Assembly: GCA_012295275.1 (NCBI GenBank)
Contig: CM022678.1
Coordinates: 19,282,001-19,346,000, forward strand
Length of the DNA: 64,000 nt
Direction of reading: 5' to 3'
From: Chrysomallon squamiferum
Taxonomy: Eukaryota; Animalia; Mollusca
The position numbers and the translations under genes were made by a program. Below are positions 6,464-64,000 of this stretch, piece after piece. Below the pieces are notes generated by a model. That model did not search any database. It saw only the letters and a list, made by a program, of their open reading frames with translations, and was not told where the DNA came from. How positions within the stretch are numbered: position 1 is the stretch's first letter; every line of letters begins with the position of its first letter.

Positions 6464-8581
6464 TTACAAACTGACGTCACCATCAACAAGAAGTGGAAAA
6501 GTTTCGAAAAGCCAGTACACAGCACTTTTGTCGTCTGCATCGTCTGGCGGAGTTTTTCCTGTTTTGAGATCATTCAGTTCCATGACTTGGTGAGTCTCTC
6601 CTGATTTCAAGCATACAATCATCATTTTCTCATTCTTCGTAGCAGTTGCTATTGCCAAATCAATCACCTGTTTCCAGTGTGAGTTTGGAGGGTCGGAACT
6701 AACAACTACGACAATGCATCGAATAAGAGGCATCAGTCGTTTGTAAAAATAGATATCATCCATTCCTTCAAAGGCAAGTTCATCATTCCTCGTGACTTCA
6801 AGACCTGTGTAGTGTTTAAGAATCTCCTGAATTTTCTTTGACATCTCAGATGTTTTGCAATCGTCTTTGTCATGGAGAATCATGATATCAGCAGCATTTA
6901 TTTCACCTTCTTTGTTCGTTTTGTAATAGAACGCAAAAATCCTTCTGAAACAAGACGTAGCTTTACCCGGTGACTCGCCTCTTGATAGGATATGCTGTGC
7001 TGTTTTCAGGTAAACTCGACTGACGAGAAGAAAAGGAATATAATCAGCTTGTTGCGTACCCATCAACAGAATTATACAGAATCTGGCCTTTTCGTATTCT
7101 TGTCGATAAAGATATTTCTCTGTAGTTCCAATCCAGTGTTCAGGTCCCTGATACCGGTTTTTAATATTCTCATAAACCGGAAGAGTACGGCCCAATTTAC
7201 TGATCATAGAGTAAACATCTTTAACTTGCCACGGTATATCTACTCCACGTGGACCTTTCGTTTGCTTCAGCAAATCAGTTACTGTTCTGAAATGAGTCCG
7301 ATATTTATACAGCACTTCTGGCGCAGAAACTTCTATAGCAAGAGTTCTGTAGTTTATTTCTTCTTTCCTCAGCCGAGCCTGTTCATCTGGAGGAAGTAAT
7401 GGATTTTTACCTTTTTCAAAACAAATAATACCCATTTTCTTCAAAGCAGCAACTTTATTGAACGGATTGGTATCAATTTCTTCTCTTTCTATTATATCCT
7501 TTAGAACCTCTTCAGCGTCTTCGTAACATTTTCTATTCATGTAAGCAGAAGCCAAGTCAAGTGTAATTTTCGCCGTGTGTTATATCAACGGACTGTTTTA
7601 GATACTTAATCGCACGCTGAAATGTTCTCGGGTTGCTTTCATTTTCCGCTTTTCTCAGCAGAACTTTTCCCAGGTTTTGAAGACCATGTCCTGTCGGCCG
7701 AAGCCTCACTGACTCCTCTACCAATCTCTGAGCGTCATCCAGTTGCCTTCTGTTTAGGAAATGCTTACCGCAGCTTGCAAGTACAAAAGGGTTCTGCTTA
7801 TCTAAATCAAGAGCTTTCTGGAAATATTCCTCGCACGAAAGCAGCGTTGTTTGTTGCTTAAACCTTTCTACCACAATTTCATCATCAAATGGTGTGTTTT
7901 TTAATTCAAACCGAGTCGCGAATTCCCCGAGCTCAGCAAACGCCATCGCATTAAACGGTTCTAATCCCTTACTGCCGACTTCTTCTAGCACTTTACAGCA
8001 TCTAACAGCGTATTCAACCATATCGATATCAGTATTAAACGAATAGCTTTGAATGGACATAGTTCGTCTAAGTGTTAGACCCTCTCCGAATTTCCATTCG
8101 TATTCTTCTGGATATTTCTCGTTTACTTTTCTGTACAGCTCCACAGACTTTAGATAAGAAGCTGGTGAAATCCGAGCGTAGCAATATGCAAGTTCAGCTT
8201 CAGCTACAGCACGCATTCTTTCAACGTCTCCCTTCAGGTTTTCCAGTTCAATTAATTCCGATTCAGCAGAAGGCTTATCGTGTTTTAACAGAAAACGCAC
8301 ACGGTTTGCACGAGCAACAATGTTAGTAGGGTCACGACGACGGACTTCTAAATTTGTCTCGATTGCCTTGTCTTGATCTCCTAGCAAAAACTGCATGAAG
8401 GAAATAAAATTGACGTCTCGATTTCTTTCCATCAAACTCTGTTTCTCTTCTTCCGGTTCTCGTTGTAACTTTAAAAGTATTTTTTCTCTACGTTGTTTAG
8501 TGCAGAGCATGAGATCTGTGAGATGAAAGGAGTGAGGAAACGATTCCAGTCTATTTTCCAAGGAAATGTCCTCATCCGTAG
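6464..8581 (-). pseudogene. TPR(IFIT/TTC22-like)-TIR paralogue, copy 1, main exon; one 8-nt deletion frameshift at ~7560
   Basis: ORFs 7557..8921 and 6464..7555 are consecutive parts of one protein. Acceptor ttttcag|CTACGGATGAG at 8581. TPR-like helices (AVAEAELAYCY, YFQKALDLDKQNPFVLASCG). Junction reads AAT TAC A CTT GAC TTG versus N-F/H-D-A-A-x-D-L in paralogues. TIR-like C-terminus DIMILHD...IRCIVVVVS...W..VIDLAI. The ORF-track N-terminus MVRNTSY is intronic. Confidence 0.85.
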
Positions 8582-10930
8582 CTGAAAAATAAAATCTACA
8601 TAATTGCAGATTTCTGAAAGAATAACTTCGGGGGAAAAGTGCCTTTCTAAAGGTAAGATGTTCGAAATTGTTTTCTTTTAAAATTGCAGATTCGTAATCA
8701 CATAATGCTTCATTTACTGAATGTCTCTCTCGCCATCTTTTTTGTATAAATATGTGTGTTTGTCTGCGTATGTCTGTGTTTTTATTCAGATGTCTGAATA
8801 TAAATATCTGTAAGAGAGAGAATAACGCGTTTATGTAAAAAAGTAGAACAGTTTCGCATGAAGCAGTAATGCAACAAAATACAATTGTTTCATTATCATT
8901 GTAACTAGTATTTCTCACCAATTTTTATCCTTGCAAAATCCGCCTCTAATGACGTTGTGCTGTGCGGTTTCTTCGCAGCCATTATCCTGAAAGAAAGTTA
9001 TACAATACTTTAGTAATTTCATTTTTCCAGTGTATTGAACATCATACATTTATGTCTATGTTCAGGTCACAGAATAATCAACTAAATTGCATGCGTCTAG
9101 ATTTTAAAATTAATGAAGAACAATGAAAATATTCTATAAAAATGTAAATAAAAATTATAACAATAAAAAGAAAGAAAGAAAGAAAATCTTTGTATCTGAA
9201 TCATTTTTGGTATTTTTGTAATTTAGAGTTGGAAGTGTAACAAAGAAAAACGAAGAAAAAAGAAACATTTGATCACCCTTAAGTCAATACTAACTTCATT
9301 AGGCTATCAAAATCTTACTGGTTCCACAAAAACATTGCCTTGGATTTATGAGTAGTTTCCTTTTCTAAAACGGTAATGTTATGTGTAGGTTTGACTATAA
9401 AACAAAATATTTTTATTTCGAAAGGAGATTCAAAGCGATGAAGGGTTGCTTATAATTCCGATTATGATGATAATTATTATTGTTGTTATTATCATTATTA
9501 TTGTTATTATTTTTGGTATTAGCATTATTATTTTCTTTCTATCTTTTTTTCTTTTTACTTTTTCTTTTTCCAGTCTACTAACCTGCAGAGAAATAAAACT
9601 TGTGCCACCTCAGTCTTGCTGATTCCAAAAAATCTTTCCCATCGATTTACGAGATCTTGTCTTTTCTGAGCTAAGTTGAATTTTATTTAACGTCTTGTGT
9701 TTATTATACTTCTTTCTACAAATAACAGTTATATATCTAAAGGCAATTCGTGAATCAGATGTTTATTTTGATGGTACCTTAAACTTTATTTCCTACGAAA
9801 TGAGTCTATTTAGTCAACGTGATAAACATACTGAAAAAACGCATTACAAATTTTCGTTGAACTAGAAAAATAAGGAAAACTTTCAGCTATTGAATTTATT
9901 TGGCTAGATGCTGCATTAAAGAACGTATATGCAAACATGAAATAATTTTTTTTTTTTTCTACATAATTTATCTATTAATCTTCTCGAACGTGTCTAAACA
10001 CAATGAAAACAAACTAGACTAATTTTTGTGGACATAGAAATTAAAGCTAAATATTTGGATCAATGTTGAAATGAAATAGAACCCAACCAGTACATAACAC
10101 AGATTTCTACTTTATATCTAATAACGCTAGGACCCCGGAGAGTTTTAACTGTTATTTACTTTTATCATACAACACGAGTTGAATGTGTGACTACTCAGCC
10201 GATATATAAACACACACAAACAGAAACTGCTGTGTCAAACTAGGTTATTGAAATAGGTCACTGAAACACACCCGGAATATGTAAGCAATATTGAAAAAGC
10301 TTTTTATAGTATAATTTATCAGTTTCTATAAAATGCAGAAACTTCACATGTCTAATGTTTGAGTCAGAGAACAATGAAACAAATGACCTTCGTCTAGATT
10401 TTAAATTTAATAATGCTAAAATAAAATAATTAAAATAAAAATTATTTGCCTTACCGTTATCTGACCACTGATATGTAATCGGCCATCAAAATCTTACTGG
10501 TTCCAAAAAAAGCAATCTCATCGATTTACGTGTTTTTACCTTTCCTGAACTAAGCTGAATTTTTAGTTAAATTGCTGTGTTATTTGCTTCTTGGTCATAT
10601 GTAGATTACACTTCCTTGTTACTATAACTTATAAATCAGTCACCTATTCGTGAATCATAGTTATGATTTAATGGACAAGTAATGAACAAACTGTTAAAAA
10701 TGGATGATATAAACTGAATAACAAATTTAAATCAAACTTACACGTTCTCGCTGGTGTCACTTATAATGAAACGAACTGTCAGTTTATATAACCACTATTT
10801 TCTACTTTCCTTTTTAAATTCCTCGAATCGGGTGAGTAAGAGGAGATAATCACTGTATTCTCTACATAAGACATGTTTTGTAATAACGTTGTGTTATGGG
10901 TAGGTTTAAATATTGAGTAAAACATTGTTA
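8454..10930. repeat. Inverted duplication of 61575-64000 (probably continues beyond the window)
   Basis: Near-identical reverse complement including exon 1, intron and start of the main exon. Confidence 0.92.
8919..8982 (-). CDS. Coding exon 1 of copy 1 (MAAKKPHSTTSLEADFARIKI + G)
   Basis: ATG at 8982-8980 preceded by ctttcag|GATA; donor ATTG|gtgaga; 64 nt splice in frame (G|CT = Ala) to the acceptor at 8581; intron 8582-8918 is 337 nt, the same length as in copy 5. Confidence 0.8.
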
Positions 10931-11310: not shown

Positions 11311-13876
11311 CAGCACTGAGGAAAATTATATTTATGCCATCCAAGTCTTACTGTTCCCATCAAACCTTTCCAATATCGTAAATTTCTCTTTTATGTGTCA
11401 AGCAAAATTTTGAATGTGTTGTTTCGTTTGCGCATTTTACAATAGTACATATCACTGCATTGACCATGTATATTTATAGTTTGATGGTAACTTTGTATGC
11501 TTATTAGATTTAGCTATTTGGCGAACGTGATTAAACAAACTGAAACCACATGACTAATTTTCGTGCAGTTGGAAAAAGAAGAAGATAAACATGGGGTATC
11601 TGTGTATACTTGAAACAAACTGTTGGTGTTTTACTTATCGAGGCCAAACTAAAGGTCCACTCGACTTTCTGTATGAAGAGATTTCTTGTGGAGATGACGC
11701 TTCAGGGGTGAATTTTGCGGCGGGTGGGGGTGCTCTCAGTTGCACGGAAAGTTACCCCGGACAAAAATAACAACAACATACAACAACAACAACAGCAGGA
11801 ACAACAACAAGAACAACAATAATAATAGCATCAACAACAACAACAACAATAACAACAACAACAACAACAATAACAACAACAGGAACAACAACAAAAACAA
11901 CAACAATAAAAGCCATATAAGCAATGTTTTATAAGAAAAATACTGTTATATCATCGCATGGCAAAATTATAAACACAGTAATGACCGCATGTCCTTATTA
12001 TATATGTACATTTACAGATGTTATATTGCAGCTCATGAATGGGTTATTTGGAAGGATCCAGGCTGTCTGTTCGCTGTTAATATGTAAATGAAACGTGGAT
12101 CGTAATATCGACATTTTTATACTTTCAGCTTCCAGAGGTCTTCTCCTTCAAAACTACTTGCGTCTTCATCTTTTTCTTTTGTGGATTCGTTGTGAATAGC
12201 ATGCACATGATTAAAATATATTTTCTAATCAGCTCCAGTATATTTTATTTCACGTCAAGCAGGGCTTTCAAGGCTTCAACAACTTAGGTCAGGTACGTGT
12301 AAATGTAACGCTGACTCTCTGAGATGTTAAATTCTAAATAAAAACAAAAGTCAGTCTTATCTACATACTTCACGTGATCACTCAGTGTTAAGTAGTTTAC
12401 CATGAAACCATTAACCGTACCTGGCACAAAAGGTATGCTAACCAGATGTTACGATATCGATATATGAGTAATCATGTCATACAATATTTCTCTTCACAGT
12501 AAAGCTTTACGATTGAATTCTGTAAACGTATTTGTTATACACTAGAGAGGTATAAATAATTTCTATTAACTTCGGTAAAAATCCTTTATTAGCTACATGC
12601 TGAAAGATATTTCCAAATGTACTGTTTATTTATTAAATTAATGTCGGCTATTTACTTATTGTTATATGCGATTATTTATTTATTTGTTTCTGTTTTTATA
12701 TGTGTTAATAGTTGAATTAATTGGATAGGTTAAAAATGTTGCCACGTTGCCCATAGCAAACTTGTGTAATGTAATTTGTTTAATGTACATTTATGTGTAT
12801 TACTTCTAAGTTATCTCCCTTTCTGAGCGTGCAGATCGAGGATTGATGAGGCTAAGAGAAAAGTACGTGCGTCCTATTAAAGTGTGGTCTTCTTATCGTA
12901 ACGAAATTCTTTGTTACGTATTCAACATCTCAGTAATTCTGACTTGTGTTAAAAAATAATAGTTTATAATTTTATCTTTTGTCATTTTCCTTTTGAGCCT
13001 GTGGTATCTTTACTCTTTTATTTTTTTTAATTGTTTTTGTTTTATTTTATTTTTATTTTATTATTTATTGTACGATCTCTTTGTATATACTTTAACCAAA
13101 TTAAGCAATTGTTCAGTCCTCGGGAAATAAACACATGAAATTATCACATTTTATATTTTCATTGCACTTACAGAATCTGCATGTTAAGAGATTGTGTGCG
13201 TTCTCTATCATGAGACTAAACTCTGAATGTTTGAAATAAACCAGTAGATAAAGTAATACGCATGAGATGAATCAATAACGTTACAGTCAAATAGAAGTAT
13301 TATTTCTAAGTACTAGCATATACAAAAATACACCCACTTATTATTTGATAAATCTGGTTTGACCAAGCTGTAAATCTGAAATGAATTTTAAAAGAAAAAT
13401 GCAGTGAGAAATATTGGGACTGGAGAAGGGCAATAACTCTTATTGCATCTCGATGTTCCGTTGCAACCTGAATTCAAGTTTCTACTAAAAATATGAACAC
13501 CAGTGACAGTTATTTAAATTAGAGGGATATATATATATATTGTTGTTGTTTGCAGCTCATTCAAAATTAAATGAAAAGCAAATTATTTTGTCGCCAATAT
13601 TTATTACTCGTTTTTCAGTTATATTTAAGAAAAGTTAGTATAATGCATGCTGAAATAGAGCTTCATCTAAGCAAGAGAAATTAACGTTCAACATAAGTTT
13701 TATACTGCTTTTATTACTGAATGTTTCTCTATCTATTTTTCTAAAAGTGTGTGTGTGTGTGTGTGTGTGTGTTTTTTTTACATACATGTGTGAGAGAGAG
13801 AATAACGTGTTTATAAAAGTAAGCAGAAGAAAGTCACATCAAGGTGTCACAACAAATTCTAATTAATATTTCTCAC

Positions 13877-13945
13877 CACCAATCTTTAACCTGGCAAAAT
13901 CCGTGTCTAACGACGTTGTGCTTTGCTCGTTTTTCGAAAAGTTAT
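13877..13945 (-). pseudogene. Orphan exon-1 relic (also 19205-19252 on -, ~51145-51215 on +)
   Basis: QSTTSLDTDFARLKIG G|gtgaga plus intron-like flank resembling copies 1 and 2; no main exon follows. Confidence 0.6.
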
Positions 13946-14780
13946 GAAATCTTTTGCTAACCTTGTTTTCTAACTGTATTGAACATCATGCATTTAAAAA
14001 AGCCAGAGTTTAAACACGACACAATAGTAATAAAAAGAAATTTAAAATGACAGGAGAACAAAGAGTAAGAAATTGAAAGAATTTTAATTTTTAAGAATAT
14101 CATAATAAAATAAATAAATAAATAAATTCTTCTTTTCATCTGATAACACTGCGACTTCTAGCAGTTCTACAGTCATATTTAATTTTATAAGCCACTATGA
14201 ACTAACAGTATTGACCATTAGCAGCAGATGTTTAATAATATAGGAACAGAAACGATGTCTGAAATATGCAATAATGATAGCGAGTATGCAAGACATATAA
14301 TAAATATTTATAGAGCAGTTTCTTCTCTTTTCTTCTTTTTATTATATTGTTGTGGAAATGGATCTGCCTATGTTATTCACAGAGTAATTAACGAAATGAC
14401 AAGCATCAAAAAGGAAAAAACAATATTTGATTACCTAAATAGTACTTTTCATTAGGCATCAAAATCTTACTTCTTCCAAAAAGCTTTCCCATCAATTTGT
14501 GTTTTGTTTCCTTCTTATATATTTGTATATTGCAGTTCCTCATAGTTATACCTCTTCTATATCAATAAACGATTCGGGAATCAAAGTTATAATTTAATGG
14601 ACAAGTAATGAATAAAATATTAGCTAACTAAAAAGTATATGATCGGAATAACAAATCTTTAACAAAACTTACGCGTTCTGTCTGGATCTTCCTCACTTAA
14701 AATCTGACTGTCAGTGTTAATTAAACGAGTAAAATTACTACTTCACTTTTTCGGTTTAGTAAGAGGAAATAATGAATAGA

Positions 14781-14838
14781 GCGTTTCGTAGAAAAATCAT
14801 TAATGCGTTTCGTAGAAAAATCATTAATGCGTTTCGTC
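14781..14838 (+). repeat. 24-bp tandem repeat GCGTTTCGTAGAAAAATCATTAAT (x2.4; x3 at 20092-20161; inverted at ~50224-50295 and ~55600-55660)
   Basis: Direct reading; copy number differs between duplicates. Confidence 0.85.
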
Positions 14839-15601
14839 GAAACAGTTACACACAATTTCCCCGCTGTGTCAAGCTAATGTCATCGATGTAGACATGCGCT
14901 GTGCGTTGAGGATATTGATCTGATCGTGACTTGCCTCGTGTGTGGGTGCGTTCAATTAACATATTACTTTGGGAAGAGGCGCTCACGATAGTGAATTTTT
15001 TAGAAATGGTTACTTCGTGAGCTTTATGGTGGGGGTACATATACAGAAATCAACAATACAATCAGAACAAAATAAAACATTAAGGAAAGTAAAAATATCA
15101 GAGGCTCAAAAGGAACATTACAAAATATAAAATTATAAACAATTCATTTATAACCGATGCAAGTAAGAATTAATGAAATGTTAAATGCGTAATAATGAAT
15201 TCCATTACGGTAAGAAGAGCAGCCTCTGATAGGACACACCTGTTCCGTTACCTATCGAAACCACGATATCGTGTTTCAGTTCATTTGACAATAAAACATA
15301 TTCAGAATTTCACAATCGTGAAACTGAGGTATATTTTTGTACAAACTTAAATATTATTTTGCACGAAATTTAGCAATTTAGCGAACGTGACTAAGCAAAC
15401 TGAAAAGACGAATTAGTAATTTTCGTGGAATTAGAAAAATAAGATAAACGTTCGTTCAACGAATTTATTTTGTTTGTGTAACTAGATACTGAATTAATCA
15501 ACGCATTTAGAAACGTAATATGAAATAGAAAAAAAAAATAAAGCTAACTTTCTATATTTACATAATTTGGCTACGAATTTACGCGAAACTGATTAACAAA
15601 A

Positions 15602-15638: not shown

Positions 15639-18600
15639 TTTTTGCTGCATTATAGAACGTATATGAAAACATGAAATCAAATACATATTTATTTTCTATA
15701 TAATTTATCTATTAATTTTCTCGAACGTGTCTAAACAAAATGAAAACAAATGAGACTAATTTTTGTGGAATTAGAAATTAAACCGAAATATTCAGATCAA
15801 TGTTCAAATGAAACAGAACCTAACCAATACATAAAACATGTTTCTACTTTATATCTAATAACGATAGGACTCCCGAGATATTTATTATTTACTTTTACCA
15901 CACTATATGAGCTAAATGCATGGCTGCTGTCAGCCGATATATACTGATATTTGCTGTGTCAAATTAGGTCATGGAAATAGGTCATTGAAACACACCCGGA
16001 AGATATTAGTAATATTGAATAAGCCATTTACAGTAGAATTATCTTTTTCTATAACATGCAGAAACTGCACACGTCTAATGTTAGTGTCAGAGAACAATGA
16101 AACAAGTGACCTGTGTCTAGATTTCAAATTTAATAACGCAAAGATAAAATAATTAAAAGAAAAAATATTTGCCTTACCGATATCTAAATACTAATATTTA
16201 TTAGGCCGTCAAAATTTTACTGGTTCCAAAAACATCTACCATCGATTTACGTGTTTTTACCTTTTCTGAGCTAAGCTGAACTTTTAGTTAATTTGTTGTG
16301 TAATTTGCTTCCTGTGTATTTGTATATTACACATCGTTCTAGTTATAACTTTCATATGTTAGTCAACTATTCCTGAGTCATAATTTAATGGACAAGTAAT
16401 AAATGATATTACTTAAATATAAATATGATCGGAATAACAAATCTCAAATCAACTTACACGTTCTCGCTGGTTGTTCGTTACTCCAAATGTCACATAAACA
16501 ACTACCTTCTACTTTCCTTTTTAAATTCCACGAATCGTTTCAGTAAGGGGAGATAATCATTGTAAAAGCTATGTAAGAAATGTTTTCTAATAAGATAATG
16601 TTATGTGTAGGTTTAAATTTTAAATATAACGTGTTTATTTCGAAGGCGAGATCAAATTGATTATGTGGCTTTATTATTTATTATTTATTTATTTATTATT
16701 TTATTTGTTTCACTCTGTTCTAACATCCAGAAAAATGAACCGCATGCCATTTAAATCTTAGTGGTTCCAAGTAAGTTTCCAATTAAACTAAATTTTACTG
16801 GTGTCAAAAAGCTTTTCCATTGATTTAAGTGATCTCATCGTTACCGAGCTAAGCCGAATTTTTATTTGTGTTAATTTGTCGTGTTGATTGCTAAAAATAC
16901 TTGCAGTTATATCTCTTGTATCTAAGGACTAATCTCGAAGCTCATTTATATTTTAATGCTAATTTAATGCATTTTTTTTATAATAGTACATAATCTATAC
17001 ATTAATTTTCGTGCAGTTAGAAAAAAAGAAAGATAAACATTGTGTGTTTATGTATATTTGAATAAACTGCTGAAAGTGTTCTTATTCAGGTCAAACTAAA
17101 GGTCCACACGTCTGTGTGTACGAAGTGGTTTCGTTATGTGGATTCGCTTCAGGGGCGGATTATGTTTTCTTTTTTCTTTTTTTTCAATTGCACAGAAGCT
17201 TGTCACGGCTAATAACAACAACAACAATAAAAGCCATATAAGCAATGTTTTTTAAGAAAAATATTGTTATATCATCGCATGGCAAAATTATAAACACAGT
17301 AATGACCGCATGTCCTTATTATATATGTACATTTACAAATGTCATATTGCAACTCATGAATGAGTTATTTGAAAGGAACCAGGCTGTCTGTTCGTTGTTA
17401 ATATGTAAATGAAACGTAGATCGTAATATCGACATTTTTGTACTTTCAGCTTCCAGAGGTCTTCTCCTTCAAAACTACTTGCGTCTTCATCTTTTTCTTT
17501 TGTGGATTCGTTGTGAATAGCATGCACATGATTACAATATATTTTCTAATCAGCTCCAATATATTTTATTTCACGTCAAGCAGGGCTTTCAAGACTTCAA
17601 CAACTTAGGTCGGGTACGTCTAAATGTAACGCTGACTCTCTGAGAAGTTAAATTCTAAATAAAAACAAAAGTCAGTCTTATCTACATACTTCACGTGATC
17701 ACTCAGTGTTAAGTAGTTTACCATGAAACCATTAACCGTACCTGGCACAAAACGTATGCTAACCAGATGTTACGAGATAGATATATGAGTAATCATGTCA
17801 CACAGTATTTCTCTTCACAGTAAAGCTTTACGATTGAATTCTGTAAACGTATTTGTTATACACTAGAGAGGTATAAATAATTTCTATTAACTTCGGTAAA
17901 AATCCTTTATTAGCTACATGCTGAAAGATATTTCCAAATGTACTGTTTATTTATTAAATTAATGTCGGCTATTTACTTATTGTTATATGCGATTATTTAT
18001 TTATTTGTTTCTGTTTTTATATGTGTTAATAGTTGAATTAATTGGATAGGTTAAAAATGTTTCCACGTTGCCCGTAGCAAACTTGTGTAATGTAATTTGT
18101 TTAATGTACATTTATGTGTATAACTTCTAAGTTATCGACCTTTCTTTGCATGCAGATCGTGGATTGGTGAGGCTAAGAGAAAAATACGTGCGTCCTATCA
18201 AAGTGTGGTCTTCTTATCGTAACGAAATTCTTTGTTACGTATTCAACATCTCAGTAATTCTGACTTGTGTTAAAAAATAATTGTTTATAATTTTATCTTT
18301 TGTCATTTTCCTTTTGAGCCTGTGGTATCTTTACTCTTTTATTTTTTTTAATTGTTTTTGTTTTATTTTATTTTTATTTTATTATTTATTGTACGATCTC
18401 TTTGTATATACTTTAACCAAATTAAGCAATTGTTCAGTCCTCGGGAAATAAACACATGAAATTATCACATTTTATATTTTCATTGCACTTACAGAATCTG
18501 CATGTTAAGAGATTGTGTGCGTTCTCTATCATGAGACTAAACTCTGAATGTTTGAAATAAACCAGTAGATAAAGTAATATGCATGAGATGAATCAATAAC

Positions 18601-20316
18601 GTTATAGTCAACTAGAAGTATTATTTCTAAGTACTAGCATATACAAAAATACACCCACTTATTATTTGATAAATCTGGTTTGACCAAGCTGTAAATCTGA
18701 AATGAATTTTAAAGAAGAATGCAGTGAGAAATATTGGGACTGGAGAAGGGCAATAACTCTTATTACATCTCGATGTTCCGTTGCAACCTGAATTCAAGTT
18801 TCTACTAAAAATATGAACACCAGTAACAGTTATTTAAATTAGAGGGATATATATATATATTGTTGTTGTTTGCAGCTCATTCAAAATTAAATGAAAAGCA
18901 AATTATTTTGTCGCCAATATTTATTACTCGTTTTTCAGTTATATTTAAGAAAAGTTATTATAATGCATGCTGAAATAGAGCTTCATCTAAGCAAGAGAAA
19001 TTAACGTTCAACATAAGTTTTATACTGCTTTTATTATTGAATGTTTCTCTATCTATTTTTCTAAAAGTGTGTGTGTGTGTGTGTGTGTGTGTGTTTATTT
19101 ACATACATGTTAGAGAGAGAGAATAACGTGTTTATAAAAGTAAGCAGAAGAAAGTCACATCAAGGTGTAATGATACAAAACAAATTCCAATTAATATTTC
19201 TCACCACCAATCTTTAACGACGTTGTGCTTTGCTCGTTTTTCGAAAAGTTATGAAATCTTTTCCTAACCTTGTTTTCTATCTGTATTGAACATCAGAGTT
19301 TAAAGACGACACAATAGTAATAAATCGAAATTTAAAATGGCAGGAGAACAAAGAGTAAGAAATTGAAATAATTTTCTTTTTTAAGAATGTTATAATAAAA
19401 TAAATAAATTAATTAATTAATTAATTAATAAATAAATTCTTCTTTTCATCTGATAACACTGCGACTTCTAGCACTTCTACAGTCATATTTAATTTTATAA
19501 GCCACTATGAACTAACAGTATTGACCATTAGCAGCAGATGTTTAATAATATACAAACAGAAACGATGTCTGAAATATGCAATAATGATAGCGAGTATGCA
19601 AGACATATAATAAATATTTATAGAGCAGTTTCTTCTCTTTTCTTCTTTTTATTATATTGTTGTGGAATTGGATCTGCCTATGTTATTCACGGAGTAATTA
19701 ACCAAATGACAATCATCAAAAAGGAAAAAAACAATATTTGATTACCTAAATAGTACTTTTCATTAGGCATCAAAATCTTACTTCTTCCAAAAAGCTTTCC
19801 CATCAATTTGTGTTTTGTTTCCTTCTTATATATTTGTATATTGCAGTTCCTCATAGTTATACCTCTTCTATATCAATAAACGATTCGGGAATCAAAGTTA
19901 TAATTTAATGGACAAGTAATGAATAAAATATTAGCTAACTAAAAAGTGTATGATCGGAATAACAAATCTTGAACAAAACTTACACGTTCTGTCTGGATCT
20001 TCCTCACTTAAAACTTGACTGTCAGTGTTAATTAAACGGGTAAAATTTCTACTTCACTTTTTCGGTTTAGTAAGAGGAAATAATGAATAGAGCGTTTCGT
20101 AGAAAAATCATTAATGCGTTTCGTAGAAAAATCATTAATGCGTTTTGTAGAAAAATCATTACACACAATTTCCCCGCTGTGTCAAGCTAATGTCATCGAT
20201 GTAGACATGCGCTGTGCGTTGAGGATATTGATCTGATCGTGACTTGCCTCGTGTGTGGGTGCGTTCAATTAACATATTACTTTGGGAAGAGGCGCTCACG
20301 ACTGTGAATTTTTTAG

Positions 20317-29681: not shown

Positions 29682-29750
29682 CACCAATATTTATCCTGGC
29701 AAAATCCGTATCTATCGATGTCGTAGTTTGCTCTTTTCCCAAAAGTATGT
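29682..29750 (-). pseudogene. Degenerate exon 1 of copy 2 (no ATG)
   Basis: Reads ...TTSIDTDFARINIG G|gtgaga, homologous to copy 1 exon 1, but no in-frame ATG is visible. Confidence 0.6.
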
Positions 29751-47830: not shown

Positions 47831-47886
<56 letters not shown>

Positions 47887-48524: not shown

Positions 48525-48586
<62 letters not shown>

Positions 48587-50945: not shown

Positions 50946-50979
<34 letters not shown>

Positions 50980-51543
50980 TTTTATTATGACATTCTTAAA
51001 AAAGAAAATTCTTTCAATTTCTTACTCTTTGTTCTCCTGTCATTTTAAATTTCTTTTTATTACTATTGTGTCGTCTTTAAACTCTGGCTTTTTTAAATGC
51101 ATGATGTTCAATACAGTTAGAAAACAAGGTTAGTAAAAGATTTCATAACTTTTCGAAAAACGAGCAAAGCACAACGTCGTTAGACACGGATTTTGCCAGG
51201 TTAAAGGTCATGAGAAATATTAATTAGAATTTGTTTTGTATCATTACACCTTGATGTGACTTTCTTCTGCTTACTTTTATAAACACGTTATTCTCTCTCT
51301 CTAACATGTATGTAAATAAACACACACACACACACACACACACATACTTTTAGAAAAATAGATAGAGAAACATTCAGTAATAAAAGCAGTATAAAACTTA
51401 TGTTGAACGTTAATTTCTCTTGCTTAGATGAAGCTCTATTTCAGCATGCATTATACTAACTTTTCTTAAATATAACTGAAAAACGAGTAATAAATATTGG
51501 CGACAAAATAATTTGCTTTTCATTTAATTTTGAATGAGCTGCA

Positions 51544-51593
<50 letters not shown>

Positions 51594-54500
51594 CTAATTT
51601 AAATAACTGTTACTGGTGTTCATATTTTTAGTAGAAACCTGAATTCAGGTTGCAACGGAACATCGAGATGCAATAAGAGTTATTGCCCTTCTCCAGTCCC
51701 AATATTTCTCACTGCATTTTTCTTTTAAAATTCATTTCAGATTTACAGCTTGGTCAAACCAGATTTATCAAATAATAAGTGGGTGTATTTTTGTATATGC
51801 TAGTACTTAGAAATAATACTTCTAGTTGACTAGAACGTTATTGATTCATCTCATGCGTATTACTTTATCTACTGGTTTATTTCAAACATTCAGAGTTTAG
51901 TCTCATGATAGAGAACGCACACAATCTCTTAACATGCAGATTCTGTAAGTGCAATGAAAATATAAAATGTGATAATTTCATGTGTTTATTTCCCGAGGAC
52001 TGAACAATTGCTTAATTTGGTTAAAGTATATACAAAGAGATCGTACAATAAATAATAAAATAAAAATAAAATAAAACAAAAACAATTAAAAAAAATAAAA
52101 GAGTAAAGATACCACAGGCTCAAAAGGAAAATGACAAAAGATAAAATTATAAACTATTATTTTTTAACACAAGTCAGAATTACTGAGATGTTGAATACGT
52201 AACAAAGAATTTCGTTACGATAAGAAGACCACACTTTAATAGGACGCACGTACTTTTCTCTTAGCCTCATCAATCCTCGATCTGCATGCAAAGAAAGGAG
52301 ATAACTTAGAAGTTATACACATAAATGTACATTAAACAAATTACATTACACAAGTTTGCTACGGGCAACGTGGAAACATTTTTAACCTATCCAATTAATT
52401 CAACTATTAACACATATGAAAACAGAAACAAATAAATAAATAATCGCATATAACAATAAGTAAATAGCCGACATTAATTTAATAAATAAACAGTACATTT
52501 GGAAATATCTTTCAGCATGTAGCTAATAAAGGATTTTTACCGAAGTTAATAGAAATTATTTATACCTCTCTAGTGTATAACAAATACGTTTACAGAATTC
52601 AATCGTAAAGCTTTACTGTGAAGAGAAATATTGTATGACATGATTACTCATATATCGATATCGTAACATCTGGTTAGCATACCTTTTGTGCCAGGTACGG
52701 TTAATGGTTTCATGGTAAACTACTTAACACTGAGTGATCACGTGAAGTATGTAGATAAGACTGACTTTTGTTTTTATTTAGAATTTAACTTCTCAGAGAG
52801 TCAGCGTTACATTTAGACGTACCCGACCTAAGTTGTTGAAGTCTTGAAAGCCCTGCTTGACGTGAAATAAAATATATTGGAGCTGATTAGAAAATATATT
52901 TTAATCATGTGCATGCTATTCACAACGAATCCACAAAAGAAAAAGATGAAGACGCAAGTAGTTTTGAAGGAGAAGACCTCTGGAAGCTGAAAGTACAAAA
53001 ATGTCGATATTACGATCTACGTTTCATTTACATATTAACAGCGAACAGACAGCCTGGATCCTTCCAAATAACTCATTCATGAGTTGCAATATGACATTTG
53101 TAAATGTACATATATAATAAGGACATGCGGTCATTACTGTGTTTATAATTTTGCCATGCGATGATATAACAATATTTTTCTTAAAAAACATTGCTTATAT
53201 GGCTTTTATTGTTGTTGTTGTTATTAGCCGTGACAAGCTTCTGTGCAATTGAAAAAAAAGAAAAAAGAAAACATAATCCGCCCCTGAAGCGAATCCACAT
53301 AACGAAACCACTTCGTACACACAGACGTGTGGACCTTTAGTTTGACCTGAATAAGAACACTTTCAGCAGTTTATTCAAATATACATAAACACACAATGTT
53401 TATCTTTCTTTTTTTCTAACTGCACGAAAATTAATGTATAGATTATGTACTATTATAAAAAAAATGCATTAAATTAGCATTAAAATATAAATGTGCTTCG
53501 AGATTAGTCCTTATATACAAAAGATATAACTGCAAGTATTTTTAGCAATCAACACGACAAATTAACACAAATAAAAATTCGGCTTAGCTTGGTAACGATG
53601 AGATCACTTAAATCAATGGAAAAGCTTTTTGACACCAGTAAAATTTAGTTTAATTGGAAACTTATTTGGAACCACTAAGATTTAAATGGCATACGGTTCG
53701 TTTTTCTGGATGTTAGACCAGAGTGGAACAAATAAAATAATAAATAAATAAATAATAAATAATAAAGCCACATAATCAATTTGATCTCGCCTTCGAAATA
53801 AACATGTTATATTTAAAATTTAAACCTACACATAACATTATCTTATTAGAAAACATTTCTTACATAGCTTTTACAATGATTATCTACCATTACTGAAACG
53901 ATTCGTGGAATTTAAAAAGGAAAGTAGAAGGTAGTTGTTTATGTGACACTGACATTTGGAGTAACGAACAACCAGCGAGAACGTGTAAGTTGATTTGAGA
54001 TTTGTTATTCCGATCATATTTATATTTAAGTAATATCATTTATTACTTGTCCATTAAATTATGACTCAGGAATAGTTGACTAACATATGAAAGTTATAAT
54101 TAGAACGAAGTGTAATATACAAATACACAGGAAGCAAATTACACAACAAATTAACTAAAAGTTCAGCTTAGCCCAGAAAAGGTAAAAACACGTAAATCGA
54201 TGGTAGATGTTTTTGGAACCAGTAAAATTGTGACGGCCTAATAAATATTAGTATTTAGATATCGGTAAGGCAAATATTTGTGCTTTTAATTATTTTATTT
54301 TTGCGTTATTAAATTTGAAATCTAGACGCAGGTCACTTGTTTCATTGTTCTCTGACACAAACATTAGACGTGTGCAGTTTCTGCATGTTATAGAAAAAGA
54401 TAAATTCTACTGTAAATGGCTTATTCAATATTACTAATATCTTCCGGGTGTGTTTCAATGACCTATTTCCATGACCTAATTTGACACAGCAAATATCAGT

Positions 54501-55920
54501 ATATATCGGCTGACAGCAGCCATACATTTAGCTCATATAGTGTGGTAAAAGTAAATAATAAATATCTCGGGAGTCCTATCGGTTATTAGATATAAAGTAG
54601 AAACATGTTTTATGTATTGGTTAGGTTCTGTTTCATTTCAACATTGATCTGAATATTTCGGTTTAATTTCTAATTCCACAAAAATTAGTCTCATTTGTTT
54701 TCATTTTGTTTAGACACGTTCGAGAAAATTAATAGATAAATTATATAGAAAATAAATATGTATTTGATTTCATGTTTTCATATACGTTCTATAATGCAGC
54801 AAAAATGTTATTGTTATTATTATTATTATTAACTCATTTTGTTAATCAGTTTCGCGTAAATTCGTAGCCAAATTATGAAAATATAGAAAGTTAGCTTTAT
54901 TTTTTTTTTCTATTTCATATTACGTTTCTAAATGCGTTGATTAATTCAGTATTTAGTTACACAAACAAAATAAATTCGTTGAACGAACGTTTATCTTATT
55001 TTTTCTAATTCCACGAAAATTACTAATTCGTCTTTTCAGTTTGCTTAGTCACGTTCGCTAAATTGCTAAATTTCGTGCAAAATAATATTTAAGTTTGTAT
55101 AAAAATATACCTCAGTTTCACGGTTGTGAAATTCTGAATATGTTTTATTGTCAAATGAACTTAAACACGATATCGTGGTTTCGACAGGTAACGGAACAGG
55201 TGTGTCCTATCAGAGGCTGCTCTTCTTACCGTAATGGAATTCATTATTACGCATTTAATATTTCATTAATTCTTACTTGCATCGGTTATAAATGAATTGT
55301 TTATAATTTTATATTTTGTAATGTTCCTTTTGAGCCTCTGATATTTTTACTTTCCTTAATGTTTTATTTTGTTCTGATTGTATTGTTGATTTCTGTATAT
55401 GTACCCCCACCATAAAGCTCACGAAGTAACCATTTCTAAAAAATTCACTATCGTGAGCGCCTCTTCCCAAAGTAATATGTTAATTGAACGCACCCACACA
55501 CGAGGCAAGTCACGATCAGATCAATATCCTCAACGCACAGCGCATGTCTACATCGATGACATTAGCTTGACACAGCGGGGAAATTGTGTGTAACTGTTTC
55601 GACGAAACGCATTAATGATTTTTCTACGAAACGCATTAATGATTTTTCTACGAAACGCTCTATTCATTATTTCCTCTTACTAAACCGAAAAAGTGAAGTA
55701 GTAATTTTACTCGTTTAATTAACACTGACAGTCAGATTTTAAGTGAGGAAGATCCAGACAGAACGCGTAAGTTTTGTTAAAGATTTGTTATTCCGATCAT
55801 ATACTTTTTAGTTAGCTAATATTTTATTCATTACTTGTCCATTAAATTATAACTTTGATTCCCGAATCGTTTATTGATATAGAAGAGGTATAACTACGAG
55901 GAACTGCAATATACAAATAT
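49730..55920. repeat. Inverted duplication of ~14520-20316; its ends (49730-50550, 55090-55920) are direct repeats of each other
   Basis: ORF 55399..55593(+) equals 14846..15040(-); 50619..50846(-) mirrors 14228 and 19538(+). Confidence 0.9.
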
Positions 55921-56681
55921 ATATATGAAACCTAATACAAATTATTATTATAGAAATGTGAAACAAAAACAGCTTTTTCATTTGTCTTTTCCTTTCTTTT
56001 TTTTATTATTATTTTTTATATTTTTATATAATTTAATTTGAAATTTTGAAGCAGATTGTTTTGTTTATTATTCCCTGGCCCAACCACTACACAGCTGTGA
56101 TCCATCAAATTAAAACAAATATAAAATAAAAACCATCCCACTACAAACTTCTTCATAAACGTTTCTCACCTTTTGCTGGTCTCTTTACTGGCTACAGCTC
56201 TTGCATATTTTAGTGACCTAATTTCACACACCCGTTTCTGTTTCTGTAATGTTTAAATCGGCTGATAGCTGTGATATTTCTAATTGATGTAGGCTGATAA
56301 AAGCGAGTTATATATAGGACTATTGTGAGTCCTAGTGTTATTCGATCAACAAGCAGAGTTATGAGTTGTATGTAGGATAGTATTTCTTCATGCGACAGAC
56401 ACTGGCACCAACTCTAGACATAGGAGCGATCCTCAAAATAATGTAAAAAGAAAAACAAGAAAAATTGGTTAATAGATATTTCTTATACATTCCGGGTCTG
56501 TTTATTCGCTATATTTATTGGATATCTCAAGGACCTAATTTCATACACCCGTTTCTCTCTCTATGCTCTTATATATAGGCTGATAAGGGCGATATATTTA
56601 GCTCATGCAAGCTGATAAAGAAGAGAATGTGGCACTGTTGGAAGTGCTAGTTACATTAGTTCCAAACTAGAAATACTTTAC

Positions 56682-56871: not shown

Positions 56872-56941
56872 AAGAAATTGATTTTGGTTAGTTGTAGAGA
56901 AATGTACAATGGAGTCAAATTTATAAATTTCTTTTAGGATA

Positions 56942-57004
56942 ATGGCTGCGAAAACACAGCAAAGCACAACGTCATTATAGAACGATTTTGCAGGGATAAA
57001 AATA
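56942..57004 (+). pseudogene. Exon 1 of copy 4, disabled (stop at codon 13, donor phase shifted)
   Basis: ttttag|GATA ATG GCT GCG AAA ACA CAG CAA AGC ACA ACG TCA TTA TAG (56978-56980; Glu in copies 1 and 5); ATA|gtgagc is one G shorter than ATTG|gtgaga. Confidence 0.75.
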
Positions 57005-57166
57005 GTGAGCAATACTAGTTACAATGATAGTGAAAGATTTGTATTATGTTCATGATACCTTCTGGCGCTCTTCTGCTTATTTTTATAATACGACATTCTC
57101 TCACAGATATACAAACTCAGATCTACATAAAAACACAAAAAACACACATACACACACCTATTTATA

Positions 57167-57271
<105 letters not shown>

Positions 57272-57418
57272 TTCGGTAATCACAGTATTTTCTAATTACT
57301 TATCTTCAACCTAAAAATAAAAATAAAAAATGCAACTTCTTATTTATAGAAATAATCTGTTTTTTTCAGTGGAAGTTCCTTCAACAAGTTTCAACTACTT
57401 ACATTTTATTTTTCAGCT

Positions 57419-59080
57419 ATGGATCAGGATATTTCCTTCGAAAAGAGATTGGAATCGTTTCCTCACTCGTTTCATCTTACAGATCTCATGTTCTACTCAA
57501 AACATTGTAGAGAAAAGTTATGTGAAAAGTTAAGAAAACGGAAAGAAGAGAAAAGAAGTCGAGTTGACAATTTTCTTTCTTTCCTGCTGTTTTTGCTAGG
57601 AGATCGAGACAAAGCAATCCAGACAAATTCCGAAGTCCGTGCTCGAGACCCTACTAACATTGTAGCTCGTGCAAACCGTGTGCGTTTTCTGTTAAAACAG
57701 GATAAGCGGTCTGCTGAATCAGAATTAATCGAACTGGAAAACATGAAGGGAGACTTTGACAGAATGCGTGCTGTAGCTGAAGCTGAACTTGCGTATTGCT
57801 ACTCTATAATATCTCCAGCTTCTTATCCAAAGGCTCTAAAGCTGTACAGAAAAGTAAACGAGAAATATGCAGACGAATACGAGTGGAAATTTGGAGAGGG
57901 TATTACACTTAGACGATCTCTGTCAGTTCAAAGCTATTCAATTCAGTCAGGTATCGATGTGGTAGAATTCGCTGTTAGATGCTGTAAACTGTTACAAGAA
58001 GTCGGCAGTAAGGCTTCAGAACCACTGAATGCAATGGCGTATGCCGAGCTCGGGGAATTAGCGATGCGACTTGAATTAAGACGGACTCCATTTGAAGATG
58101 AAATGCTGGCAGAAGAGATTAAACAACAAACAGGACTGCTACCGGGTGAGGAGTATTTCAGCAGAGCTCTTGAATTAGGGAAGGATGACCGTTTCGTACT
58201 TGGAAGGTGCGGTAAGCACTTAGTAAGCACAAATCAACTGGATGAGGCTGAAAGAATGCTAGAGACATCAGCCAGACTTTTCCCGACAGGGTATACTCTT
58301 CATCAGCTGGGTAAAGTTCTGCTGAAACAAAGAAACAAAAGCAGCGCATATGAACGAGCGATTGAGAAGCTAAAAGAGGCAACTCAAGTAAAATTCGGCG
58401 AAACTCATGATGCAGCTCTTGATTTGGCTTCTGCTTACATGAGTAAAAATCGCTACAGCGATGCTGAACGAGTCTTAAGAAATATAATAGAAACAGCCGA
58501 CATCGGTTCCGATCCGTTCACAGAAATTACCGCACTGAAAAATATGAGTTTTATCTATTTTGAAAAAAGCAAACATTGGAGACTTTCTTCAGATGAACAG
58601 GCTCGGCTGAGGAATGAAGAAATGAATTACAAAATTCTTGCTCTAGAAGCTTCTGCGTCAGAAGTGCTGTACAAATATCGCACTCATTTCAGAACGGTAA
58701 CTGATTTGCTGAAGCAAACGAAAGGTCCACGTGGGATAGAAATACCGTGGCAAGTTAAAGATGTTTACTGTATGGTCAATGAATTCACACCTTCCCTTCC
58801 GATTTATAGCAACATTCATAATCGAAATCTAGGACCGGACGACTGGATTCGAATTACAGAGGAATATCTTGACCGACAAGAATTCGAAAATGCCAGACAG
58901 TGTGTAAGTCTGCTGATGGGTACGCAACAAGCTGATGACATTCCTTTTCCTCTCGTCAGTCGAATTTATCTGAAAACAGCAGAGTACGTGTTATCAAGTG
59001 GCCTGTCACCGAGGAAAGCTAGGTCTTGTTTGAGAAGGCTTTTGCGTTCTACTACAAAACAAGCAAAGAAGATGAAATAA
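57419..59080 (+). CDS. TPR-TIR paralogue, copy 4: 553-aa TPR-only ORF from a new ATG, leaving frame just before the TIR-like domain
   Basis: Acceptor tttcag|CT ATG GAT where other copies have CT ACG GAT; uninterrupted 553-aa ORF; 1-nt deletion at 59039-59043 (AGG CTT TT- GCG versus AGG ATT TTT GCG in copy 1). Confidence 0.65.
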   Translation: MDQDISFEKRLESFPHSFHLTDLMFYSKHCREKLCEKLRKRKEEKRSRVDNFLSFLLFLLGDRDKAIQTNSEVRARDPTNIVARANRVRFLLKQDKRSAESELIELENMKGDFDRMRAVAEAELAYCYSIISPASYPKALKLYRKVNEKYADEYEWKFGEGITLRRSLSVQSYSIQSGIDVVEFAVRCCKLLQEVGSKASEPLNAMAYAELGELAMRLELRRTPFEDEMLAEEIKQQTGLLPGEEYFSRALELGKDDRFVLGRCGKHLVSTNQLDEAERMLETSARLFPTGYTLHQLGKVLLKQRNKSSAYERAIEKLKEATQVKFGETHDAALDLASAYMSKNRYSDAERVLRNIIETADIGSDPFTEITALKNMSFIYFEKSKHWRLSSDEQARLRNEEMNYKILALEASASEVLYKYRTHFRTVTDLLKQTKGPRGIEIPWQVKDVYCMVNEFTPSLPIYSNIHNRNLGPDDWIRITEEYLDRQEFENARQCVSLLMGTQQADDIPFPLVSRIYLKTAEYVLSSGLSPRKARSCLRRLLRSTTKQAKKMK

Positions 59081-59514
59081 ATGGTGCTGATATCATGATT
59101 ATCCATGACAAAGACGATTGGAACACATTTCAGATTTCAATGACGATTCAGATCATTCTGGAAAATTATACAGGTCTTAAAGTCACGCGAAATGATGAAT
59201 TTGCCTTTGAAGGAATGGATGATATCCATTTTTACAAAGGAGTGATGCCTTTTATTCGATGCATTGTTGTAGTTGTTAATTCCGATACGCCAAACACACA
59301 CTGGAAAAAAGTAATTGATTTGGCAATAGAAACTGCTACGAAGAAGGAGAAGATGATGATTGTATGCTTGAAATCAGGAGAAACTCACCGTGTCACTGAA
59401 CTGAATAATTTCAAAACAGGAAAAACTCCACCAGACGAAGCAGACGACAAAGCTGCAGTGGACTGGCTGCTGGAAACTTTTCCACTTCTTGTTAATGCTG
59501 ACGTCAATTTGTAA
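59044..59514 (+). pseudogene. Out-of-frame TIR-like domain of copy 4
   Basis: ORF 59026..59514: GADIMIIHDKDD...YTGLKVTRNDEFAFEG...IRCIVVVVNS...HWKKVIDLAI...LVNADVNL*, intact apart from the upstream frameshift. Confidence 0.75.
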
Positions 59515-61552: not shown

Positions 61553-63471
61553 CAGATTGATCTCACTTTCCAAATAACAATGTTTTACTCAATATTTAAA
61601 CCTACACATAACACAACCGTATTACAAAACATGTCTTATGTAGAGCATACAGTGATTATCTCCTCTTACTCACCCGATTCGTGGAATTTAAAAAGGAAAG
61701 TAGGAAGTAGTGGTTATATAAACTGACATTTCGTTTCATTATAAGTGAGACCAGCGAGAACGTGTAAGTTTGATTTAAATTTGTTGTTCAGTTTATATCC
61801 TCCATTTTTAACAGTTTGTTCATTACTTGTCCATTAAATCATAACTATGATTCACAAATAGGTGACTGATATATAAGTTATAGTAACAAGGAAGTGTAAT
61901 CTACATATGACCAAGAACCAAATAACACAGCAATTTAACTAAAAATTCAGCTTAGTTCAGGAAAGGTAAAAACTCGTAAATCGATGAGATTGCTTTTTTT
62001 GGAACCAGTAACATTTTGATGGCCGAATACATATCAGTGTTTAGATAACGGAAAGGCAAATAATTTTTATTTTAATTATTTTATTTTAGCATTATTAAAT
62101 TTAAAATCTAGACGAAGGTCATTTGTTTCATTGTTCTCTGATTCAAACATTAGACATGTGAAGTTTCTGCATTTTATAGAAACTGATAAATTATACTATA
62201 AAAAGCTTTTTCAATATTGCTTACATCTTCCGGGTGTGTTTCAGTGACCTATTTCAATAACCTAGTTTGACACAGCAGTTTCTGTTTGTGTGTGTTTATA
62301 TATCGGCTGAGTAGTCACACATTCAACTCGTGTTGTATGATAAAAGTAAATAACAGTTAAAACTCTCGGGGGTCCTAGCGTTATTAGATATAAAGTAGAA
62401 ATCTGTGTTATGTACTGGTTGGGTTCTATTTCATTTCAACATTGATCCAAATATTTAGCTTTAATTTCTATGTCCACAAAAATTAGTCTAGTTTGTTTTC
62501 ATTGTGTTTAGACAGGTTCGAGAAAATGAATAGATAAATTATGTAGAAAAAAAATACATTTGATTTCATGTTCGCATATACGTTCTTTAATGCAGCATCT
62601 AGCCAAATAAATTCAATAGCCGAAAGTTTTCCTTATTTTTCTAGTTCCACGAAAATTTGTAATGCGTGTTTTCAGTATGTTTATCATGTTGACTAAATAG
62701 ATTCATTTCGTAGGAAATAAAGTTTAAGGTACCATCAAAATAAACATCTGATTAACGAATTGCCTTTAGATATATAACTGTTATTTCTAGGAAGAAGTAT
62801 AATAAACAAATAACACAAGACGTTAAATAAAATTCAACTTAGCTCAGAAAAGACAAGATCTCTTAAATCAATGGGAAAGAATTTTTGGAATCCGCAAGAC
62901 TGAGGTGGCAAAAGTTTTATTTCTCTGCAGGTTAGTAGACTGGACAAAGAAAAAGTAAAAAGAAAAAAGGATAGAAAGAAAATAATAATACTAATACCAA
63001 AAATAATAACAATAATAATGATAATAACAATAATAATAATTATCATCATAATCGGAATCATAAGCAACCCTTCATCGCTTTGAATCTGCTTTCGAAATAA
63101 AAATATTTTGTTTTATAGTCAAACCTACACATAACATTACCGTTTTAGAAAAGGAAACTACTCATAAATCCAAGGCAATGTTTTTGTGGAACCAGTAAGA
63201 GTTTGATAGCCTAATGAAGTTAGTATTGATTTAAGGGTGATCAAATGTTTCTTTTTTCTTCGTTTTTCAGTTTCCTTTCTTTCTTTTTATTGTTATAATT
63301 TTTATTTACATTTTTATAGAATATTTTAATTGTTCTTCATTAATTTTAAAATCGAGACGCATGCAATTTAGTTTATTATTCTGTGACCGGAACATAGACA
63401 TAAATGTATGATGTTCAATACACTGGAAAAAAAGAAATTACTAAAATATTTTATAACCTTCTTTCAGGATA

Positions 63472-63535
63472 ATGGCTGCGAAGAAACCACACAGCACAAC
63501 GTCATTAGAAGCGGATTTTTCAAGGATAAAAATTG
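63472..63535 (+). CDS. Coding exon 1 of copy 5 (MAAKKPHSTTSLEADFSRIKI + G)
   Basis: ctttcag|GATA ATG at 63472; donor ATTG|gtgaga at 63536; near-identical inverted twin of 8919-8982. Confidence 0.8.
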
Positions 63536-63872
63536 GTGAGAAATACTAGATACAATGATAATGAAAAAATTGTATTTTGTTGCATTACTGCTTCATGCGA
63601 AACTGTTCTACTTTTTTACATAAACGCGTTATTCTCTCTCTTACAGATATTTATATTCAGACATCTGAATAAAAACACAGACATACGCAGACACACACAC
63701 ATATTTATACAAAAAAGATGGCGAGAGAGACATTCAGTAAATGAAGCATTATGTGATTACGAATCTGCAATTTTAAAAGAAAACAATTTCGAACATCTCA
63801 TCTTTAGAAAGGTACTTTTCCCCCGAAGTTATTCTTTCAGAAATCTGCAATTATGTAGATTTTATTTTTCAG

Positions 63873-64000
63873 CTACGGATGAGGACATTTCCTTGGAAAA
63901 TAGACTGGAATCGTTTCCTCACTCCTTTCATCTCACAGATCTCATGCTCTGCACTAAACAACGTAGAGAAAAAATACTTTTAAAGTTACAACGAGAACCG
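63873..64000 (+). CDS. Start of main exon of copy 5 (truncated by window end)
   Basis: tttcag|CT ACG GAT GAG GAC ATT TCC TTG GAA AAT AGA = TDEDISLENRLESFPHSFHLTDLML..., same as copy 1. Confidence 0.85.

Follow-up and report, generated by a model that had tools for sequence, protein, structure and literature searches.

The IFIT genes have been described, in the available text of PMC3688568, as two-exon genes whose second exon carries nearly the whole open reading frame (ORF), and as a family confined to jawed vertebrates that co-evolved with interferon, a distribution based on BLAST of three invertebrate genomes. In invertebrates, a TIR-TPR class of proteins is named in a figure legend of an oyster study (PMC4346834), and the accessible part of the Aplysia immunome (PMC9334734) carries the same label among its abbreviations only; ecTIR-DC families, cited in the part of PMC6321704 available, may include the architecture described here. 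We investigated a 64,000-nt stretch of Chrysomallon squamiferum contig CM022678.1 (hereafter the window; all coordinates are positions within it), and by tblastn and DNA alignment identified four full-length homologous gene copies (copies 1 to 4) and the start of a fifth. These belong to a family of proteins of ~730 residues, with an IFIT-type TPR clamp predicted for the first ~540 residues and a TIR domain for the last ~140. The existence of this IFIT-fold and TIR family is well supported.

An earlier note on this DNA had proposed both domains from the order of short motifs, and 11/11 patterns built from its list were recovered, in the stated order, in all four full copies. Its IFIT-type TPR part is borne out by profile and predicted fold, with TTC22 as a further structural neighbour. 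A family profile of 61 members, none of them an IFIT, was searched against PDB sequences; the best natural matches were IFIT1 (E 7.3e-32) and IFIT5 (E 2.3e-29), with only an engineered consensus TPR outranking IFIT1, and the best natural non-IFIT was OGT (E 2e-16). The alignment to IFIT begins at residue 1, takes in the N-terminal helices and is collinear, and by profile comparison the TPR part is homologous to IFIT. The fold was tested on a stand-in, an AlphaFold2 (AF2) model (pLDDT 91.7) of the Gigantopelta aegis protein P0001, which shares 34% identity with copy 4 over 96%. Its top Foldseek match was IFIT5-RNA (E 9.8e-11), and a VIA search aligned it to residues 6-481 of IFIT5 (Z 30.5, root-mean-square deviation (rmsd) 4.1, 448 aligned); the first 13 rows were all IFITs, and the best non-IFIT reached Z 19.7. 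The stand-in model and the profile match agree in extending the clamp fold along the entire length of IFIT. By structure alone, TTC22 also came out as a neighbour in the ESM Atlas, with a TM of 0.64 by target and 471 positions aligned across query residues 5-509. IFITs are defined as TPR-only proteins of ~470-490 aa with no signalling domain, whereas these are ~730 aa long with a C-terminal TIR. Because of this extra domain and a partial pocket, the family would work as an IFIT coupled to an adaptor-type TIR, yet lies outside the IFIT family as defined.

For the C-terminal domain, an AF2 model of the C-terminal half of copy 1 (6467-7558; pLDDT 90.6) placed the TIR at model residues 221-360 (6467-6898, minus strand), by the model and its structure matches. 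The best VIA match was the TIR of IL-1RAcPb (Z 13.3, rmsd 2.6, 135 aligned), and others included IL-18Rbeta (13.2), oyster TIR-STING (12.2), TRIF (11.8), SARM1 (11.7) and MyD88 (11.5); the top 11 rows among 48,161 chains were all TIR-domain entries (Z 13.3-10.5). The predicted fold is that of a TIR, five-stranded, parallel and flavodoxin-like, with a BB loop. Foldseek gave no match for this model at E<=0.001, and the wide VIA search decided. Pfam also detected no TIR on the window proteins at E<=1, so that the TIR proposed by the earlier note, which the model upholds, is assigned here from fold and profile evidence. ESM features scored 0.94 to TIR clusters. A TIR profile built from 17 sequences matched 105/152 homologues at the C-terminus (90/137 of those not used in building it, and 0/152 reversed controls), including 100/118 long homologues across phyla; against the PDB, 23/24 rows were TIR-domain entries, among them IL-1RAcPb (E 0.0013) and TIR-STING (E 0.0017). 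In helix alphaC no column exceeded 25% Glu (maximum 28/114, in the sequence-profile register only), and the catalytic Glu of oyster TIR-STING aligned to a gap in the family profile. In the available part of a 2026 preprint (bioRxiv 10.64898/2026.04.20.719644), TIR activity required the alphaC Glu in all cases. On these three grounds, an adaptor-type TIR appears more likely than an NADase. Among copies 1 to 4 the TIR is also the most constrained part, with pairwise ratios of non-synonymous to synonymous change (dN/dS) of 0.40-0.65, compared with 0.53-0.69 overall and 0.69-0.94 in the C-terminal TPRs.

We identified intact relatives in gastropods, bivalves, octopus and amphioxus, answering a check of phyletic range that the earlier note had proposed. 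Gigantopelta aegis has three intact proteins (P0001-P0003, 747-754 aa), 33-34% identical to copy 4 over 96% and sharing the C-terminal domain. A profile search of 1.84 billion representatives returned 1,913 matches at E<=0.001 (129 at E<=1e-30), of which the best 150 were taken. Among 30 of these that were looked up, 20 clusters carried names: the gastropods Gigantopelta, Batillaria, Haliotis, Littorina, Babylonia, Physella and Lymnaea, and also Sinanodonta, Potamilus, Ostrea, Mactra, Octopus and Branchiostoma. Members are thus found in abalone, and the amphioxus members carry Pfam TIR_2. The ESM Atlas held two mollusc clusters and an echinoderm-rich look-alike cluster (score 0.97; TIR_2 in 91%), the latter known from its cluster annotation and not from its sequences. 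In prokaryotic genomes and metagenome contigs no full-length relative was found, in scans that detect close relatives only: the former gave 13 loci, none better than E 1e-6 and each matching P0004 over only a limited part of its TPRs between residues 278 and 539, and the latter one weak 58-residue match. In a quick maximum-likelihood tree of 40 rows, containing neither IFIT nor TTC22 sequences and with weak deep nodes (P0006, P0133 and P0149 being omitted for length), the window copies stand as a separate clade (support 100) in a group with Gigantopelta (95), beside abalone sequences (99), indicating that expansions of the family are lineage-specific. In the IFIT pivot region, copies 1 to 4 are without the insert of 40 residues seen in other members (compared with P0001-P0003; columns 323-365 of alignment A2). 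Three long homologues, P0006 (1941 aa), P0143 (1491 aa) and P0149 (1206 aa), match the profile in several places each, which may reflect IFIT-like units in tandem or large insertions.

We investigated the RNA pocket by mapping IFIT1 residues by hand to profile columns from a HMMER alignment, with counts taken over 152 homologues; we take K259 to be an RNA contact, and the IFIT5 residues given as equivalents are likewise presumed. The columns of K151 (K or R in 131/148), R187 (142/150) and R262 (128/151) were basic in 85-95% of homologues, and were the three most basic of 251 columns. The K259 column held K or R in 112/151, the H289 column H in 127/149, the Q290 column H or Q in 125/148, and the W147 column Y or F in 130/148. 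Five contact positions were more basic than the 27 other K/R positions of IFIT1 (Mann-Whitney p 0.011, a rough value as the sequences are related). The basic tunnel set (K151, R187, K259, R262 and H289/Q290) was kept at family level, with at least five of six sites in 109/144 homologues, and P0004 and P0091 retain 6/6 scored pocket sites. The triphosphate-specific set (D34/E33, R38/T37, Q42/Q41, Y252/Y250 and R255/R253) was not, the alignment of helix 2 being less certain; the Y252 column held Y in 23/151 and the R38 column K or R in 75/139. The importance of pocket residues in IFIT5 and IFIT1 is drawn from the accessible portions of PMC9677429 and PMC13197388; Table 5 of the former lists K150M, R186A, R260E and Q288E as impairing RNA binding by IFIT5, and the same source reports that Q41E impairs it. 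The conservation of pocket residues at family level lends indirect support to the RNA sensing that the earlier note suggested as a possibility.

On balance we lean towards intact members working in the cytosol as receptors that hold the ends of single-stranded RNA and would signal through TIR-TIR contacts. With RNA as the ligand, the clamp would bind single-stranded RNA ends in the cytosol, and its closure, or clustering on the RNA, would bring TIRs together; the TIR would then recruit a MyD88- or SARM-like TIR adaptor, with output to NF-kB/IRF. Several observations weigh against this. The column of R255 (IFIT5 R253, a main triphosphate contact) is basic in just 7% of homologues, the column after it being basic in 62%, and the Q42/Q41 column is mostly E or D (89/139). 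The window copies keep 3-5/6 scored sites, with R262 lost in 4/4 and K151 absent from copy 4; at Y250 all four carry F, and they are acidic overall, with net charges between -7 and -13. Gigantopelta P0001-P0003 have S at K151. The IFIT fold was modelled on the stand-in P0001, AF2 may lean towards solved IFITs, and phmmer of copy 4 alone gave generic TPRs only, with no IFIT. For the TIR, 18/118 long homologues have no match, and the lower dN/dS coincides with lower dS in 5/6 pairs, which gene conversion could partly explain. From the column counts, a nucleic-acid-type tunnel is likely kept in the family; reading of triphosphates in the manner of IFIT5 cannot be taken for granted, and least so in the window's subfamily.

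An IFIT-style restriction effector, in which the clamp sequesters viral RNA and blocks translation and the TIR serves oligomerisation, auto-inhibition or as a decoy damping TLR/MyD88, seems to us unlikely. It would accord with vertebrate IFITs, which sequester RNA without a signalling domain in the text available of PMC13197388, and with the degenerate state of the TIR, in which Pfam TIR_2 is found in 5/61 members and none in the window, and whose BB loop lacks in the window copies the proline that precedes Gly in 49/112 homologues. This TIR is, however, kept in most long homologues, folds confidently and is the most constrained part of the window copies. We are a little more doubtful of a TTC22-like or generic TPR-TIR adaptor, whose groove would bind protein or phosphopeptide, not RNA, and link it to TIR signalling. 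The structural proximity of TTC22, the absence of several triphosphate-specific IFIT residues and the less basic pocket of the window subfamily are all consistent with such an adaptor, but the most conserved basic columns are those of the IFIT RNA contacts, not of other IFIT K/R positions, and RNA-bound IFIT5 scored above the apo form (Z 30.5 and 29.1 versus 26.5-27.1), a weak indication as the model may favour one state.

Much the least probable, in our judgement, is a sensor with an NAD+-cleaving TIR in the style of SARM1 or TIR-STING, making cyclic ADP-ribose (cADPR) or depleting NAD+. TIR-STING (Z 12.2) and SARM1 (Z 11.7) are among the fold neighbours, an Asp lies one turn into alphaC in all four copies, the echinoderm-rich look-alike cluster has more canonical TIRs, and the accessible part of the 2026 preprint describes many non-TLR animal TIRs as catalytic; yet the same preprint needs the Glu throughout, no conserved alphaC Glu is present in the family (at most 28/114 per column), and the Glu of TIR-STING is unpartnered. 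The RNA receptor with adaptor-type signalling is the interpretation we carry forward below.

Turning to the locus, the window is AT-rich animal sequence with many repeats (GC ~0.24-0.40). Each gene copy has a large coding exon preceded by a polypyrimidine-AG acceptor. Read through, the large exon gives 696-712 aa, and ~720-735 aa together with the 21-codon upstream exon, so that ~97% of the ORF lies in one large exon; the small exon comprises 21 codons plus 1 nt and has its own acceptor, and in copies 1 and 5 it is open and lies ~340 bp upstream of the large exon. Protein identity among copies is 64-68%, well above chance. The length and relatedness that the earlier note gave for five ~730-aa paralogues therefore hold, and its count becomes four or five loci, copy 5 being cut by the window edge and perhaps an allele. 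All four full-length copies are disrupted in assembly GCA_012295275.1.

Copy 1 has its large exon, encoding clamp and TIR, at 6464-8581 (minus strand), with the frame shifted by an 8-bp deletion near 7565, and its small exon at 8919-8986 (minus strand; ATG at 8982, 21 codons plus 1 nt, GT donor), at a type of junction that is spliced in paralogue contigs; an AG acceptor precedes the small exon, making a further 5' exon likely. In copy 2 the large exon (27173-29277, minus strand) is frameshifted three times, by deletion of 1 bp near 28536, 4 bp near 28122 and 1 bp near 27300, and the small exon (29685-29740, minus strand) is degenerate, with the ATG stretch deleted. Two stop codons (41220 and 41238) interrupt the large exon of copy 3 (40732-42875, plus strand), which has also lost 1 bp near 41533 and gained 4 bp near 41727; no small exon was found for this copy within the window. 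Copy 4 has a small exon at 56938-57004 (plus strand) with an in-frame TAG after 12 codons, and a large exon at 57417-59514 (plus strand) with its own ATG at 57419 and a single 1-bp deletion at 59038-59039, between the TPR part and the TIR (~59083-59511). Across 56938-57421 (plus strand), its stop-bearing small exon has a shifted donor and the large-exon ATG stands where other copies have ACG; this new ATG could rescue translation. Copy 5 has an open small coding exon (63468-63535, plus strand) and the start of a large exon (63873-64000, plus strand) that ends at the window edge. Since its large exon is identical to that of copy 1 at 128/128 bases and it lies across a 200-N gap from it, copy 5 may be an allele or very recent duplicate of copy 1.

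This scaffold gap (29972-30171) has minus-strand genes to its left and plus-strand genes to its right. Inverted duplications of 90-97% span it (8454-10930 with 61575-64000, and 1-1910 with 32847-34728). The head-to-head layout hinges on the join at the gap, and the two parts may be two haplotypes.

We additionally identified transcribed relatives in sequencing reads. In contigs from the RNA runs X8 and X9, which belong to one study, the small exon runs straight into the large exon, and the same junction occurs in contigs of X3 (a second study, its kind guessed as DNA); the spliced contigs differ from the window copies, indicating that paralogues, and not the window copies themselves, are transcribed and spliced. 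A read check of the breaks covered copy 4 only. Run X2, from another sample, contains a 141-bp contig (depth 15) near-identical to copy 4 (one other letter, one gap) and in frame at the break, which suggests that the break is an allele or assembly error; the deleted form was found in none of the contigs listed, among which only that of X2 is near-identical to copy 4 across the break. In run X1, 413 contigs align to the 2.4-kb gene at at least 90%, and one variant base is common to up to 20 distinct contigs; the summed contig depth reaches ~2,400, compared with 38-64 for contigs specific to copy 4, and does not amount to a copy number. These read data fit a large genomic family of dozens of copies, without giving a count.

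The birth-and-death evolution proposed in the earlier note gains support from the lineage-specific clade in the tree, from an overall dN/dS of 0.53-0.69 in genes with multiple breaks, and from the many paralogous contigs in reads. The dN/dS values show past purifying selection followed by decay. Orphan small exons with flanks, and no large exon behind them, lie at 13860-13926 (minus strand), ~19190-19240 (minus strand) and 51164-51226 (plus strand), within segmental duplications of 3-6 kb (11890-15353, 17211-20316 and 49719-55943) that are 95-97% identical, and are read as remnants of lost or partial gene copies. This signal of selection then decay, together with the duplications and their orphan exons, fits birth-and-death turnover, with the four full copies here as its casualties. 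In a search for interferon-stimulated response elements (ISRE), GAAANNGAAA was matched 33 times window-wide versus 8 expected; the matches near small exons fall in pyrimidine-rich, probably intronic DNA, and the promoter was not located. The flanking DNA also includes broken retrotransposon remains at 22547-23785 (plus strand; a gag-like ORF with no Pfam match and an RVT_1 fragment, E 9.7e-12), a fragment at 20232-20651 (plus strand) with a weak Tc5/pogo-type transposase DNA-binding match (E 0.026), and a direct 2.7-kb duplication of 89% identity (37566-40254 with 46979-49657) made of dispersed repeats.

From its predicted fold and added TIR, the family is likely an RNA-sensing receptor older than interferon. 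A large family in invertebrates that shows the predicted IFIT fold and keeps pocket residues would shift the origin of IFITs back to early bilaterians, and its TIR suggests that the IFIT ancestor signalled rather than merely sequestering RNA. MAVS is reported absent from abalone (PMC11103948) and Aplysia (PMC9334734) in the parts of these sources available, which bears on the route of cytosolic-RNA signalling in gastropods; abalone carries family members. We put forward tentatively, at rather less than even confidence, that IFIT-TIR fusions make up a so far unrecognised class, in bilaterians, of cytosolic pattern-recognition receptors for RNA that signal through TIR without MAVS, from which vertebrate IFITs (and TTC22) would derive by loss of the TIR, later coming under interferon control, and whose expanded paralogues with altered pockets would read different RNA 5' ends. 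The family is also relevant to the antiviral immunity of farmed shellfish, for which it supplies named intact candidates.

Comparing the family with known systems, the invertebrate TIR-TPR proteins (PMC4346834, PMC9334734) and ecTIR-DC share its pair of domain labels and its phyla; in the accessible parts of those surveys they are proposed as adaptors of unknown function, and TIR-TPR is a domain-count class unconnected there to IFIT or RNA. Pfam TIR misses most members of the present family (5/61 match), so the family is largely uncounted in domain surveys. The bare TIR-TPR label was thus already in use in oyster work, and no link of invertebrate TIR-TPR proteins to IFIT was found in a literature search thin on subscription journals; IFIT and TPR terms had no match in the available text of PMC5869526, PMC11103948 and PMC2575513, and in that of PMC6723221 IFIT stands in a reference only. 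For vertebrate TTC22, the matched cluster representative is 565 aa long and its alignment ends before the TIR region of the family. The adaptor-type TIRs (IL-1RAcPb, IL-18Rbeta, TRIF, MyD88 and MAL) and oyster TIR-STING share the TIR fold (Z 11-13). TIR-STING is a mollusc precedent for fusing a sensor domain to a TIR; unlike it, the present family has a predicted IFIT clamp as the sensor, and the catalytic Glu is absent from its TIR. Compared with jawed-vertebrate IFIT1 and IFIT5 (PDB 5w5h, 5udi, 6c6k, 4hor and 4hot), at 15-17% identity, the family adds two helical hairpin regions and the C-terminal TIR, does not keep R255 and Q42, has a phase-1 small exon with 21 codons (ATG plus 2 nt in IFIT) and occurs outside jawed vertebrates. 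It shares with them the predicted clamp fold including the N-terminal helices, the K151, R187, K259, R262 and H289 sites at family level, an ORF lying nearly all on one exon, and clustered, lineage-specific expansion.

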